Shown piece after piece: positions 13,183 to 19,127 of a stretch of 64,000 nt of DNA (the first letter of the stretch is position 1; each line of letters opens with the position of its first letter). Source of the DNA: an uncultured Phycisphaerales bacterium (GTDB lineage: Bacteria; Planctomycetota; Phycisphaerae; Tepidisphaerales; Tepidisphaeraceae); the NCBI GenBank assembly GCA_963844715.1, contig CAWJPJ010000006.1, positions 384,001 to 448,000 of the forward strand, read 5' to 3'. Made by a program: the position numbers and the translations under genes. The notes below the pieces were generated by a model. It was not told the DNA's origin and searched no databases. It worked only from the letters and a program-made list of their open reading frames with translations.

Positions 13183-13382
13183 AATCAAAACAGCGACGCG
13201 GGCTTGAACGTGTTACGACTATTTGGGGGTAGGAACCCTGGAGAAAAGGACGCCAAGTCCCTCTGCCATTGTGGGGTGAGCGAAGATCGTGTTTTGTAGA
13301 GTGGTGAAGGGGAGGCCGGCGATCATCGCCATCTGGATGACGGCGAGTCGTTGTATTCACATTGCGCTCCTTGTCACAGGTG

Positions 13383-14174
13383 TCACCTGCGACGCCGTGA
13401 CCAGCGACCCAGTTTCGCCAATTCAAGATTCACCACATCGACATCAAACTCATTGGGATCGAATGATCCGCCGCACCACTGCATCGAGGATTCGTGTTCC
13501 TCATGACTGGGATCGGCGATCGCTTGCAAAAACTCCTGGTAGCCCCACGGCCCGCCCACGTCCTCCGGCGGACACCGCCGCTGGCCCCCGAGGCAAGTCA
13601 CGGTGGCCTTGCGATCATCTGCGATCGGTTCCACGGATTGGACCGTGATTGTGTGCATCCAACCGTCGCCAAAATCGTACAGGTACGTGAACTTCGTTCG
13701 CGCCTTTTGAATCAGCATCCCCAACACGACGCCACTTTCTTCCACGCCTTGATCCGGTTCCTCGGGGTCTTCGGTGAACTCTTGCCCGGCGATGGTAAAG
13801 CTGTGCAGATGGGAATCCGTCCAGCCCATGACGACTTGCAGGCTGTCGTGCAGCCGATCCAACGTGATCGAAGCGGGCACCATCAACTGCCGCCAGATCT
13901 TCGGCTGGACATCGTCAAGCACGATGCGGAGTTTGAAGCAATAGCCTTGAATAAAATCGCGGTCCCGCTTGCCGCCGCGGTGGACCAGGTCGGCGGCCAT
14001 GGCTGTCGCCTGCGGAGCCAGTCCCATCAGTTCGAACATCTCTTTCATGGATGCCGCAATATGCTTGTCGCTCAGGTCCGGCCGCTGGGCGCGAATCTGT
14101 TCGAGGGACTTGCCGGCGTTCATTTGGGTAGCGATGTCCAACGCCAGTGCGCTAATCTTAATGCTCTTTGCCAT
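13383..14174 (-). CDS. Plasmid pRiA4b ORF-3 family protein with N-terminal extension (passenger of the LSR element)
   Basis: IWRQLMVPASITLDRLHDSLQVVMGWTDSHLHSF, YLYDFGDGWMH, CPPEDVGGPWGY, FDPNEFD. Confidence 0.9.
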   Translation of the reverse strand: MAKSIKISALALDIATQMNAGKSLEQIRAQRPDLSDKHIAASMKEMFELMGLAPQATAMAADLVHRGGKRDRDFIQGYCFKLRIVLDDVQPKIWRQLMVPASITLDRLHDSLQVVMGWTDSHLHSFTIAGQEFTEDPEEPDQGVEESGVVLGMLIQKARTKFTYLYDFGDGWMHTITVQSVEPIADDRKATVTCLGGQRRCPPEDVGGPWGYQEFLQAIADPSHEEHESSMQWCGGSFDPNEFDVDVVNLELAKLGRWSRRRR

Positions 14175-16310
14175 GCAATTCCTTGTCACCATTTTGACTA
14201 CCCCTGTTAACTTCATCCTGGCGTGCCGGACCAAGCACGGCAGTTCTCAACTGTGTCGTGTTCTTGAACCTCTCCGCCAGATATTTCAATTGTGATTCAT
14301 CGGCACGCACGATCAAACGGCGAATCGGCTCGTCGCTATACCGTGCCTGCAACTGACCTCTATGGACCCAACTGCGAACCGTTCTTTCGCTGGCGCCTAT
14401 GTGACGCGCCAGGTCGGCGGTAGTCCACTCGTGTTCGTTCAACGGCGGCGATGGACGATGTTCCGGGGCCGGGCGATATCGCGAAAGCCATTTGCGGACG
14501 GTGCTGGCGTTAAATGGCAAGCCGCGTGGCGAGCGGTGCCCGGCAGTGTTGAGCTTGTTGGCAATTCCTGCCGATTTCACGCCTTGCTGATGCAGCGCGA
14601 TGATCATTTCATCAATGACGCCGTAATTGGCAAGTTGTTCGTGCCGTAACACGGGCCGCCGCAGGCGCACATAGCTGCGATGGCCGCCAACCCAGTGAAT
14701 CCACGCCTCGACCCATTCGCTGTGGCCTTCAACCTGCACCACAACCCGTTCGATAATCAGGCGCAGAATCGCCTTGCGGTCCTCATCCCGGGTGGACGGC
14801 GCGTGCCAGAGCGTGGGCAAATCGGACGCCAAACGTTGAATCTCCTCCTGTTCCCCCTCGCTCAAGAGCCGTGGACATTCCCGACGCCATCGTTCATGTT
14901 CCTCCATCAATTGCCGCTGTTGGCGTAGCGCCGTCTCCCAATTCGTCTCCAGCGTCCGCGCCACCAAGCGATTCTCAGGCTCTACCGCTTCATACTGACG
15001 ATGCGCGCGATCCGCCTCGTAGGCGACGCGCTCCAGTCGCTGACGCCACAACGCTTGGTCTTTTTCGCGTTGATTCTTCAAATCAGCCGCAACCTGGAGG
15101 CTGACTTCCAGCGCCGCCGGTTCCATGGCCAGCAATATCTGCCGCACAACTTCCTGATCCAGTGCCGATGCCGAGAGGCTTTGGCATGAAGGATCGGCAT
15201 AAGCGGTCTTCTTTCCTTCACAGCTATAGACGCCCTGGCTGGCCTTGCCGTAGCGGGTGAGCATGCGGTATCCGCAGCGGCGACAAACCACCAGCCCCGT
15301 TAATCGCGCCCGTCCATGTCGAATGGCGCCGCGGGATTCAATCTTCGATCGATTTTCGCGCATCTGATGCTGATTGGCTTCATACTGGGCCCAACTGATA
15401 TAAGCGGGGAACCGGTCACGGATCAATACCCGCCACTGGTCCCTGGGCAATCGCCGCCACCAGCAGTGCCCGTCGGGCCGTCTCTGTCGCCCATAGCGTC
15501 CATAAGTATAAGCACCGGCGTACATCGGATTGCACAACATGGCGCGAATCGTCGATAGATTGGGACGCCGCCATTGCAAAGTGCCATGATCGGGTCCGCC
15601 CTCAAGGCGAATCCCTATTCGCACGTTCTCATTCCGCAGTTGCCGTAATGTGCCGGTGGCCGTGCCAACCCGTTCAAACGCATCGAATACCCGCATCGCA
15701 ATGGCGCGTACCTGCTCATCGGGATCCTGGACAATGCGGCCGGCGGCGTCGCGAACATAACCAATCGGCAACCGGCTGAACAATTCGCCACGCTGCGCCT
15801 TCTGTCTGGCGCCTTGGAGCATCCGCTGTTTGAGAATGTGCAGTTCGGCCTCGGACATTGTCCCTTTGAGGCCCAGGAGCAGTCGATCGTTGTAGGCGGA
15901 TGGATCATAAAGCCCATCAAGGTCATAGATCAGCGTGCCAAACAGCGCGCACAACTCCAGCAGTTGATACCAATCTTTGCATAATCGGGCGAGCCGGGAC
16001 ATCTCCACGCCCAAGATCAAACCCACACGCCCCAACGCCACCTCCGCTAATAAGCGCTGGAAGCCCGAGCGGCCTTCGGCTGACGCGCCGGACCTGCCCA
16101 AATCTTCGTCATAAACCTGAACCAGCGCGCAGACCATCCGAGGCTAATCGCGTGATCAACCAACCCGTATTGCAACTGCGTCGATTCCCGATGCCGCTGC
16201 ACCTGATGAATGCTGGATTGGCGCACATAAACCACTGCCAGGCGTTCACGATGTTGCGAAGTGCATTTATGCTGGCCCACCGGCAGCGCCTCAATCGTGG
16301 TGCTGTTCAT
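14158..16310 (-). CDS. Large serine recombinase (resolvase, recombinase, zinc-ribbon and coiled-coil domains, C-terminal HTH); indel near 16130
   Basis: VYVRQSS with catalytic Ser, DEDLGRSG, SRLAR, DRLLLGLKGTMSEAELH, NPMYAG, CRRCG zinc ribbon, WTTADLARHIGASERTVRSW HTH. Confidence 0.92.
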
Positions 16311-16487
16311 GAAGTGGTCTCCGAGTTAGATAGTTTTGCAGGATGCGGCTCATCACCGCTATAAGCTGTCGGCGCGGCCGATCCGGCAGGTGCTGCCACA
16401 GATCGTTGTGTGTTTGCGATCCGCTCAGCGGCCGCGGCGAGTCCCGCAGCTTTGGGAGCGGATCGGTCGTCGGAAAGGGTCAGACAT
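16291..16487 (-). CDS. Small ORF (~65 aa) upstream of the LSR, not in the ORF track; needs one extra C in a C-run near 16478
   Basis: GGAGG RBS, then ATG TCT GAC CC(C) TTT reads MSDPFPTTDPLPKLRDSPRPLSGSQTHNDLWQHLPDRPRRQLIAVMSRILQNYLTRRPLHEQHHD*, overlapping the LSR start. Confidence 0.6.
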
Positions 16488-16808
16488 GACGATCCTCCGT
16501 GATCGGATGAATGGAGCCGGCCCTTAATCCACTGGGCCAGCCGCAACAGTGCGTCGGCTCCAATTGTCGGTCGCCCGCCCGCCGAATTCAATGGTGTGAC
16601 AACAGCAGCATTCTGATCATAAGGGTGAGGACTTCGCCGGCTTCGGGGCCGATCATGGTGAAGCCTCGGATTTTCTGGCTGTTGGGGTCGATCAGGACTT
16701 TCATAAAGCCCTGGTTCTCGTCGATCGTAGCGGTTCGCAGGATCATGCTGGTCGGGACTTTGACTACCTGGACGGGTATCCCGCGGGTTTTGGCTTCGGT
16801 TTCGGTTA

Positions 16809-17834
16809 GAGCATTTCCCATTTTAAACTAGCGCCATCGATGCTGTTTTGCTAATCTCCGATTCAACAAGGAGGTTGCCATGGCATCGCAAACCGCTCTG
16901 ACCCGTCGATGGATCATGTCGGCGTATCGTGCCGGCAAAGGCACGAAGGAGATTTCCGCGATCTTCGGCCGATGCGAGTCGGCCGTCCGCCGCGTGCGAC
17001 AGGATGAACGTGAACGGGGGACGGCCGAACCGCTGCTTCATCTTCGTGGCCGCAAGGGGAAGTTGACCGGCGAGTTGAAGACTCGTTTGAGTCGGTTCGT
17101 GGCCGCCCGGCCGGATGCCACGCTCAACGAGATCAAAGAGAAGTTGGCGCTGGACGTGTCGCTGTCGACGGTCGACCGTTGGCTCAGGAAGCTGGGCCTC
17201 TCCTTTAAAAAAAGTCTCTCCACGCGTCCGAGCAGGATCGGCCCGACGTCGCCGCCGCGCGGACGCAGTGGCGTCGGCGGCTGAAGGACGTCGATCCCGA
17301 GCGTCTTGTTTTTGTGGATGAATCCGGGGCCAAGACGAACTTCACCCGATTGCGTGGCCGGTGCGGCCGCGGCGAACGGTTGTTGTGCAAGACCCCGGCC
17401 GGACACTGGAGCACGACCACCATGATCGCCGCGGTTCGGCTCGACGGCGCGACCGCCGGCGCGATTGTTCAAGGGGCGATGGACAGCGATGTTTTTGTCG
17501 CCTGGGTGCGTGAAGCGCTCGTGCCCAGCCTGCGAAGCGGGGACATCGTGGTGATGGACAATTTGCAGCCGCACAAACATTCAGAAGTGCGACGCCTGAT
17601 CGAAGCCGCCGGCTGCGAACTGTGGTTGCTGCCACCCTACTCGCCGGATTTGAATCCGATCGAGATGATGTGGAGCAAAGCGAAGCAACTGATCCGCTCG
17701 GCGGAGCCCAGAACGTTCGACACCTTGGTCCGGGCTGTGTTCGCGGCAATGGACGCCGTTACGACCGAAGATGCCGCGGGATTTTTCCGCCATTGCGGTT
17801 ACCGCCAGCCGCTAGTTTAATTTGGGAAATGCTC
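16809..17834 (+). mobile_element. IS630-family insertion sequence (1026 bp) with TA target duplication
   Basis: 25-bp TIRs GAGCATTTCCCATTTTAAACTAGCG (16809-16833) and CGCTAGTTTAATTTGGGAAATGCTC (17810-17834), 23/25 match; TA at 16807-16808 and 17835-17836. Confidence 0.95.
16880..17820 (+). CDS. IS630 transposase, expressed by -1 frameshift
   Basis: HTH orfA ending LGLSFKK at the TTTAAAAAAAG slippery site (17204-17214); orfB has FVDESG, VMDNLQPH, LPPYSPDLNPIE. Confidence 0.93.
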
Positions 17835-19127
17835 TAATCCGATTTGTGCGACCTGCGGATCGGTGAAAAGAACGGACGGGATGAGGCGGTCGCGCGTTGA
17901 ATGGGATTTGCCGGCGAGGTTGTCGCGGACGACGCGGAAATCATCATACGATACATGCGTGAATTGGGGGCTGCCGGCGCACTCGCCCATGGCCCAGATG
18001 TCGGCGGCGGTGGTTTCGAGACGGTCGTCGACTTTGATAAAGCCGCGTTCGTCGAGTTCGACGCCGGCGAATCCGAGGCCGATTCCGGCGGTGTTGGGGA
18101 CACGGCCAACGGCGGCAAGGATGTCGGTGGCGCGGAGGGTTTGGTTGCCGCTGCGGGTACGCACGTCCAAAGTCACGTTGACGCCAGAGCGGCCTTGCAC
18201 GCTGACCACGTCTGTTGAGAGAAGAATTTCGATGCCGTCGGCGGACAAGATGCGCTGGATTTCGGCGGCGACGTCGGGGTCTTGGTTGGGGAGAAGCTGC
18301 TGGCCGTGCTGAATAATCGTCACGCGGCTGCCGAAACGCTGGTAAGCCTGGGCAAATTCTAGGCCGACGTAACCGCCGCCGAGAACAACGAGATGCTCGG
18401 GGAGGCGATCGAGTTCGAGGATGTCGATGTGGGTCATGGGGCGGCTGTCCGCCAGGCCCGGAGTTGGGGGGATCAGGGCGTGCGTGCCGAGGTTCAGGAA
18501 GACGCGCTCGCCTTTAAGGATGCGGGTTCCGCCATCGTTCAGTTTTACTTCGACGGTTTTGGGTTCGATGAACGTGGCTTCGCCGAGGATAAGATCGGTG
18601 CCGGCGGCCTTATAAAGGTCGAGGTGCGCCGCGATCTCGGACTCGACCATTTTGCGCTTTCTCTGACGAACGGCGGCCATGTCGATTGACGTTGGACCGG
18701 TACGGGACCCAAAATGAGCCGCGTGATGAACCAGATCGGCGACTTTGTGCGCTCCAGATAACGTTCTTGCTGGGAAGGCAATTGATATTCGGGCACGATC
18801 CGCCGATCCATCGCCGTTCGACGACGACGTTCTGCTCCTTGGTTTTGCCAAAATGCCAGGCCAGGCACTTGCCGGCCTCGCCGCTTCCGATGATGAGATT
18901 TTTGACGGTCTCCGTGCCCATGTTCAGGTTCCTTCCGATGACTCCAGTTGGTGAAAATGTTAGGCAGGCGAAACGGTATTGTAAGCGGTGAAAATTGCAA
19001 TAAATTTCAGTTCCGGCGAATTTTTTCCCTTGGCTAAAGCTTTGGGCGTGGGTTAGCTTGGCAGCGGCTGAAATCGCGCTTCTGGAAGTTATCCACAACT
19101 TGATCCGACTCGGCGAGGAGCGTTTCC

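Follow-up and report, generated by a model that had tools for sequence, protein, structure and literature searches.

A putative insertion-sequence-sized large serine recombinase element in a reductase gene of an uncultured Phycisphaerales bacterium

We analyzed a 64,000-nucleotide stretch of DNA from an uncultured Phycisphaerales bacterium (GenBank assembly GCA_963844715.1, contig CAWJPJ010000006.1, positions 384,001 to 448,000), hereafter the window, in which a pyridine-nucleotide disulfide reductase gene is interrupted by an insert of 3,279 bp at 13348-16626. The insert encodes a large serine recombinase (LSR), and we consider it likely that it is an autonomous mobile element of insertion-sequence size with this LSR as its sole recombination enzyme. 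The element is real and probably active in the population; it is ordinary in its chemistry and unusual in its economy and layout. An initial annotation of the window, made from its letters and open reading frames (ORFs), had described a small ORF, an LSR, and a pRiA4b ORF-3 protein as the content of a minimal, phage-free unit. Both the ORFs and the Pfam matches bear this out, as the element consists of a recombination module with a single cargo gene. All of its genes, like the reductase gene, are encoded on the minus strand.

Interruption of the reductase gene and the ends of the element

On the minus strand, the reductase frame runs through ...TMIGPEAGEVL to a CTC at 16629-16627 and picks up again at CTC GCC GTC ATC CAG (LAVIQ...HPTMAEGLGVLFSRVPTPK, read also as LAVIQMAMIAGLPFTTLQNTIFAHPTMAEGLGVLFSRVPTPK) from 13347 downwards. 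GAG on the plus strand, or CTC on the minus strand, is found at both junctions (13345-13347 and 16627-16629). This break at E-V-L, with resumption 3.28 kb away at L-A-V-I-Q, had been noticed in the initial annotation and is also apparent at the protein level. The Pfam profile Pyr_redox_dim is split over it, with profile positions 16-77 in the piece at 16588-16821 and positions 78-106 in the piece at 13230-13347. Homologous reductases are contiguous across EVL/AVIQ: in all three homologues matched by both pieces, two from the same-genus genome G001 and one from G016, the last residue of the upstream piece is the first residue of the downstream piece (462/462, 427/427, and 571/571). A fourth homologue, L059, was matched by the upstream piece only. 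Because the three homologues are contiguous on one shared residue, a Leu codon, the uninterrupted site holds the triplet once, as is expected for conservative serine recombination; apart from this shared triplet there is no further target duplication. By sequence, profile coverage, and homologue contiguity we assign the 3' piece of the reductase gene (LAVIQ...TPK*) to 13219-13347, where the last triplet, 13345-13347, would hold the crossover dinucleotide, and a middle piece (...TMIGPEAGEVL) to 16627-16821, where the junction triplet recurs at 16627-16629.

Both junctions are also present in DNA sequenced from soil. As soil evidence we used Logan contigs of four runs (X1-X4) from a single study, leaving out X5 and X6, which had small shares (0.07 and 0.06). 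The left junction is spanned by short-read contigs X1 record 3 and X2 record 10, and the right junction, which lies in the middle reductase piece, by X4 record 31.

Joining the two ends gives a 66-bp dyad with arms of 32 nt each (16595-16626 and 13347-13378) around a central GA, just as had been claimed from the letters. The arms are symmetric at 19 of 32 positions, a level reached by 13 of 100,000 random 32-mer pairs from the window, and imperfect dyad attachment sites are typical of the LSR family. At the outer ends of the arms, equidistant from the center, is a perfect 8-bp terminal inverted repeat (TGTGACAA / TTGTCACA), and the strongest symmetric motif of the dyad lies 25-32 bp from the center. 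The arm at the 3' end of the element in the sense of the LSR gene (13348-13378) contains the distal motif TGTGACAA, a Shine-Dalgarno sequence AAGGAG at 13372-13367, and a GTG at 13360-13358. The arm at the 5' end (16595-16626) ends in TTGTCACA on the minus strand and is delimited by its sequence, by the dyad statistics, and by alignment with the relative L023 described below; the frame of the small ORF is open throughout it. The crossover core had been given as GA, and this assignment stands in part. The core should be GA or AG within the GAG triplet; GA is most likely, and the one point in its favor is that the arms are equally long in both the window and L023.

The LSR gene occupies 14158-16310 and encodes, by Pfam, Resolvase, Recombinase, and Zn_ribbon_recom domains and a C-terminal helix-turn-helix (HTH). 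As assembled, it is split into an N-terminal part (16047-16310), which holds the motif YVRQSS, and a C-terminal part (14158-16137), in which the catalytic domain PF00239 (E 4.6e-16) is followed C-terminally by PF07508 (E 4.8e-14) and PF13408 (E 1.5e-08). Across 51 aligned sequences, residues R30 and S32 are each conserved in at least 90%. Eight Pfam families are matched at E <= 0.01, and DUF4368 is absent from them. The split comes from one missing base after 16130. Two runs, X1 and X3, cover the position, and in their contigs an extra G behind 16130 restores the frame; an intact 717-aa form that differs by one residue (P0001) is present in the protein database as well as on an X1 contig. The indel correction that the LSR had been thought to need is supplied by the short-read contigs themselves, and because they carry the restoring G, the frameshift reflects either an error of assembly or variation between strains and does not mark a dead gene. 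Position 16130 is one of three differences between the window and the short-read contigs inside the element: at 15305 the contigs of all four runs read A for the window's C, and at 14050 two runs show G>A. Indels elsewhere in the assembly may be errors too.

Relatives, a second context, and target sites

The boundaries of the element are defined by relatives as well as by the reductase. One of these, L023, is a 2,788-bp metagenome contig with an LSR 77% identical to that of the window, in an element of 2,648 bp. It is homologous to window positions 16638-14262 (75.7%) and 13377-13334 (86% over 44 nt, with AAGGAG-N6-GTG kept), and it shares with the window both the arms at its ends (...AAGGAGTGCATTGTGAATACAACGA-CTC and CTC-...GTTGTCACA) and the junction triplet. 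This copy of the LSR is thus bounded by homologous ends and not by different ones. The flanks of L023, ...ENFVREAMHPMDEA|E (...HPMDEA|E) and E|AFAK, belong to a ParB-like gene, and the 63-aa flank piece taken alone had no Pfam match. A more distant cousin, with an LSR 42% identical to that of the window, is found in a closed 9.2-Mb genome (G406) as two 3,382-bp repeat copies of 99.97% identity, with an element of 3,375 bp. Both copies encode an LSR together with an HTH protein and a DUF5372 protein (E 4.4e-22), and they interrupt rve/Mu-transpos_C_2 (IS21 IstA-like) genes at K-x-(K/R)-V-E, where the shared dinucleotide is AA. Judged by these repeats, the cousin settles the question of whether such a unit is autonomous. 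Precisely bounded units of 2.6-3.4 kb that interrupt a conserved coding motif are represented by the window (3,279 bp), L023 (2,648 bp), and G406 (3,375 bp), and the initial proposal of an insertion-sequence-sized LSR element bounded by att-like arms is upheld by the precise junctions, by the L023 arms in another gene, and by the two-copy cousin. With up to 7 substitutions allowed, the window's arm sequences were not found in 11 loci of more distant LSR relatives.

A near-identical element also occurs in a second context. Contigs of X1, X3, and X4 follow the element to 16638 and then continue into a different flank, a 30-mer of which corresponds, but for 2 mismatches, to a ParB-like gene in the bacterium's own genome (G000 contig 8, locus L052). 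The L052 gene reads ...MHPLDEAEAFAKLAQEEAKGV and matches ParB_N at E 2e-4, which is below the Pfam cut-off. Because the second flank matches this gene, a near-identical element is also located in a ParB-like gene, giving two contexts in all, and the transposon-like behavior suggested earlier is supported by this different right flank in the contigs of three soil runs. The L052 gene (1055-2905) itself has an apparent one-base frameshift (ALALG/ENFV) and breaks off at ~1575 beside a tyrosine-recombinase-like ORF on the opposite strand. It has an SSB-like gene upstream and resembles a portion of an integrated mobile element.

The occupied sites resemble one another over a long stretch. Between the reductase site and the L023 site, 19 of 23 positions are shared (TGGATGA-G--GAG-G--TTCGCC), and the bacterium's own genome contains five matches to this motif at <=2 mismatches, compared with none for the reversed control. 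The two best matches have one mismatch each and are near-identical: L099 (G000:C8:838830-838852), which lies in the L052 ParB-like gene, and L098 (G000:C7:888900-888922). Based on these motif matches, the ParB-like motif is probably the usual target and the reductase site a look-alike. Where the occupied sites have GAG, L099 and L098 have GAA, and they could serve as targets if the core is GA and could not if it is AG.

Relatives of the LSR are widespread. The closest protein matches (P0002-P0007) are 66-83% identical to it. Scans of the genome-contig and metagenome-contig collections for close relatives returned one locus each, the LSR is present in neither of two same-genus genomes, and an order-level search, in which 5 of 141 genomes matched at E <= 1e-100, found no LSR closer than 51% identity. 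Among plasmids of cultured bacteria, LSR homologues occupy 997 places in 486 plasmid records, mostly from rhizobia. DUF5372 genes are found in 133 plasmid records and adjoin an LSR gene in the Burkholderia sp. PAMC 26561 plasmid NZ_CP014310.1 (H20, H28). The Pseudomonas putida TOL plasmid pWW53 (L066, NC_008275.1, 76006-78212) has an LSR homologue of ~40% identity as two "recombinase family protein" pieces beside xylS. Of 120 listed LSR homologues, 89 have no contig of 5 kb or more. Such shortness might point to repeats, but we give it no weight, since metagenome contigs are short anyway.

The small gene, the far-end start signal, and competing readings

The small ORF (16307-16591), whose stop codon overlaps the start of the LSR gene (ATGA), may be a shortened relative of DUF5372. 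As integrated in the window, it can start only at an internal TTG that no Shine-Dalgarno sequence precedes, from which it encodes 94 aa. When the window ends are joined at one CTC, the far-end AAGGAG-N6-GTG is placed 13 nt before the junction and in frame with the small ORF, and the product would begin MNTTTHPYDQNAAVVTPLNSAGG.... The joined ends of L023 likewise have AAGGAG-N6-GTG at -13. The arms of the G406 cousin bear no sequence relationship to these, and there an ATG lies at -14 in frame with the DUF5372 gene, such that all three elements with known ends have an in-frame start 13-14 nt before the junction. From this signal, in frame only after end joining, and from the family to which the LSR belongs, we infer that the element forms a circle.

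These observations suggest the following cycle. The LSR would pair the end arms (attL x attR) and cut at a 2-bp core in the GAG/CTC triplet, likely GA on the plus strand, and excision would release a 3.28-kb circle carrying the 66-bp attP. The LSR could then recombine attP with a chromosomal or mobile-element site resembling TGGATGAnGnnGAGGnnTTCGCC, the usual target apparently being the conserved coding motif HP(M/L)DEAE|AFAK of a ParB-like gene on other mobile DNA and the reductase site a look-alike of it. Closure of the circle would place the far-end AAGGAG-N6-GTG in frame with the small gene, and the small protein may act on the LSR so as to favor re-insertion. Because the small gene lacks a ribosome-binding site when integrated, its full product would be made only from the excised form. 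A phage-type excision factor needs to be expressed in the integrated state, so the arrangement of the small gene points the other way. The broader model, that topology acts as a switch in which a circle-only, DUF5372-derived protein binds the recombinase and sets its direction to insertion, and that the family homes into conserved coding motifs of other mobile elements (ParB-like and IS21 transposase genes) with look-alike host sites, such as this reductase, hit now and then as collateral, is one that we put forward tentatively and would not call probable. To our knowledge, control of directionality by a circle-only protein has not been known for serine integrases. If this steering is true, it would be a simple and portable control of the direction of recombination and would explain how minimal elements escape loss after excision.

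Structure prediction is compatible with contact between the two proteins. A predicted complex of the LSR and the small protein has an ipSAE of 0.59 (0.59, 0.60, and 0.59 in three runs), compared with 0.00 for the best of three controls. In calibration, 116 of 157 solved complexes passed the mark, as did 2 of 215 mismatched pairs; only 18 of the 157 solved complexes passed it with scores of <=0.60, whereas both passing mismatched pairs did so. The runs share at least 47% of contacts, and the pLDDT of the partner is 41-43. This prediction lends weak support to the idea that the small protein may dock on the LSR.

Several observations weigh against mobility or against a role for the small gene. 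The element is present as a single copy in its own genome (85% complete), the LSR of the window copy is frameshifted as assembled, and the two best target matches, L099 and L098, are unoccupied. The second flank is one base longer than the ParB frame of the bacterium's own genome, so the target gene there may itself be broken. Neither a circular junction nor a same-species empty site was found in the Logan contigs of the four runs, a search that is uninformative, as contigs drop rare forms; a single other joint, linking 13571 to 13809 in one contig of X4 (side 21), was too weak to read. As for the small ORF, it has no Pfam match at E <= 0.01, and an hhalign comparison with DUF5372 proteins aligned only the C-terminal helix (E 0.0011, probability 20%, 22 columns). 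Its differences from the L023 counterpart fall 25/16/15 by codon position, with no third-position bias, and amount to 12 synonymous and 35 non-synonymous codon changes. A sigma-70 consensus scan found no promoter on the coding strand of the element and one match on the other strand, compared with 1.8 expected in shuffles.

The absence of third-position bias and of a Pfam match would suit a reading in which the element is mobile, but the small ORF is non-functional or made from its internal start, and the far-end start is a by-product of arm sequence that the recombinase requires. Both AAGGAG and GTG lie inside the LSR-binding arm, where their conservation could reflect DNA recognition, and the complex prediction gives the small protein little support. 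However, the layout recurs in G406 with unrelated arms, an ATG at -14, and a clear DUF5372 gene (E 4.4e-22). Moreover, the motif P-I-x-x-x-ALLxLARW in the N-terminal helix is conserved in six of six aligned relatives down to 17-31% identity, and the ORF is 285 nt long in both the window and L023 (63% identity), with its stop over the LSR start in both. We regard the by-product reading as unlikely.

We also asked whether the insert could be the decayed stump of a larger island or prophage, now immobile, of which only the integrase end is left. The single, frameshifted window copy would fit this reading, as would two LSR relatives of 46-51% identity (L045, 6090-10527, and L002, 1-1193) that end directly at the same convergent DUF1257 gene. 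L045 also has an AAA ATPase gene on the other side of its LSR. These LSRs could serve a larger element, and the neighboring genes may represent either another conserved target or a larger host element. On the other hand, both att arms of the window element are present and symmetric, L023 keeps the same two arms around 2.65 kb, the 3.38-kb unit of G406 occurs twice at 99.97% identity, a near-identical element is followed by a second flank in contigs, and the frameshift is absent from the short-read contigs. A decayed stump is thus quite unlikely.

A domesticated, gene-interrupting element of the skin/SpoIVCA or fdxN/XisF type, whose regulated excision restores the reductase, would account for the frame-precise position in a coding motif, the same orientation as the host gene, and the exact ...GEVLAVIQ... 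that conservative excision would give, but this reading is very improbable: the reductase gene holds an IS630-family insertion as well (16880-17820) and lies in two frames near 18850, therefore excision would not restore it and the element is not skin-like; the same element or its 77% relative is in unrelated ParB-like genes; and it is found in 0 of 2 same-genus relatives.

Known systems, cargo, and neighboring features

The clostridial LSR transposons Tn4451/Tn4453 (recombinase TnpX) and Tn5397 (TndX) have ends joined at a 2-bp core GA, and the circle joint of Tn4451 creates a promoter for the recombinase. These are either 6 kb in size, with resistance and mobilization genes, or a conjugative transposon. 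By analogy, the window element may work like Tn4451 and Tn5397, since it would use an LSR as transposase, has GAG at both junctions, and would pass through a circular intermediate in which the joint makes a signal, a promoter in Tn4451 and a would-be translation start in the window element. It differs in that units of its type measure only 2.65-3.4 kb and have a DUF5372-type small gene before the LSR and a C-terminal HTH after, and in that its target is a long motif of ~23 bp and not a short one. Its LSR also lacks DUF4368, which places it outside the Tn4451/Tn5397 clade; a preprint puts TndX-like enzymes in a "multi-targeting" clade of LSRs, 63% of which have DUF4368 (10.1101/2021.11.05.467528).

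The window LSR shares its Resolvase, Recombinase, and Zn ribbon domains with the phage integrases of Bxb1, phiC31, and A118, as well as an imperfect dyad attP, conservative exchange without target duplication, and a small accessory protein, here predicted weakly to touch the LSR. Attachment sites of these phages (attP) are ~40-50 bp, whereas the symmetric motif of the window dyad lies farther out, at 25-32 bp from the center. Furthermore, the window element comes without a phage, and expression of its accessory gene would take place in the excised state, opposite to what an excision factor needs. Like IS607, the element is of insertion-sequence size, uses a serine recombinase as transposase, and produces no target-site duplication. 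The TnpA of IS607 is a small serine recombinase with an N-terminal DNA-binding domain and minimal target specificity, and it makes no target-site duplication (PMC6188088, PMC4058570). The window enzyme, by contrast, is a 717-aa LSR with an N-terminal catalytic domain followed by Recombinase, Zn ribbon, and HTH, and has a long, specific target; because the domain order differs, the element is not of the IS607 type.

The element also resembles gene pairs annotated as "DUF5372 family protein" and "recombinase family protein" on plasmids of rhizobia, Burkholderia, and Streptomyces, whose LSRs belong to the same family and whose small genes may be related to that of the window. The window's small gene differs from them in that it appears to keep only the C-terminal helix of DUF5372, and the window element is without the middle HTH gene (G406 has the full DUF5372-HTH-LSR set) and has gained a PRiA4_ORF3 cassette. 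No literature description of a family of small LSR-only elements was found among papers judged by title and abstract, and no paper on DUF5372 was found in the literature searched. In genome engineering, where serine integrases are valued tools, any additional enzyme whose sites are known is of use; the locus supplies an intact LSR of 717 aa, a 66-bp joined-end site that can be read from the sequence, and two natural target sequences. It also adds evidence for a family of 2.6-3.4-kb elements moved by an LSR alone, and elements of the DUF5372-LSR type appear to prey mainly on other mobile DNA. For annotation, the implication is that a "recombinase family protein" and a small gene of no assigned function inside a broken gene can amount to a complete transposon.

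The remaining gene of the element, PRiA4_ORF3 (MM3350-like), lies at 13383-14234 with a likely start at the ATG at 14171 and an N-terminal extension of ~75 residues. Its product matches PF07929 at E 2.8e-63 over profile positions 3-172 of 173 and resembles PDB entry 2i1s (E 2.2e-29), deposited only as a hypothetical protein. Its stop codon is 5 nt from the end arm, as the initial annotation had read it. Homology between the window and L023 is interrupted between 14262 and 13377, where the window has 884 bp with PRiA4_ORF3 and L023 has 255 unrelated bp. Because L023 has the same arms and no PRiA4_ORF3 gene, it is a two-gene version of the element, and PRiA4_ORF3 is, from this alignment, an added cargo cassette between the LSR gene and the end arm. 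The initial annotation had remarked on neither this cassette nature nor the split of the small gene. The gene was not found beside any other fetched LSR relative. For an LSR of 82% identity (P0003) and a PRiA4 protein of 86% identity (P0123), the longest contig has the same length (13,350 bp) and source, a hint that the LSR-PRiA4 pair may recur.

We rejected the idea that PRiA4_ORF3 generally accompanies mobile elements in this phylum: 0 of 29 loci with a homologue had a transposase- or recombinase-family ORF of >=170 aa within ~1.5 kb. Its homologues elsewhere in the phylum are fused to DUF6398 or SEC-C or stand beside housekeeping genes. Fusions of PRiA4_ORF3 domains with DUF6398 or SEC-C motifs occur at L070-L073 and G255:C8:71576-82370, and one genome has two equal-scoring copies 10 kb apart. 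One report, however, describes pRiA4_Orf3-like genes in 12 Mutator-type transposons (PMC3942029).

The IS630-family element within the reductase gene (16880-17820, plus strand) encodes HTH and DDE_3 domains in two ORFs, 16880-17284 and 17314-17820, and the reductase pieces that flank it abut on one residue of homologues. Contig depth over this element is 10-40, compared with 2-9 around it, and because of this raised depth we take it to be multi-copy in the soil samples. Farther upstream, the N-terminal part of the reductase (MGTETVKNLIIGSGEAGK...) is out of frame with the main body (17817-18851) near 18850, reflecting either a frameshift or another assembly indel.

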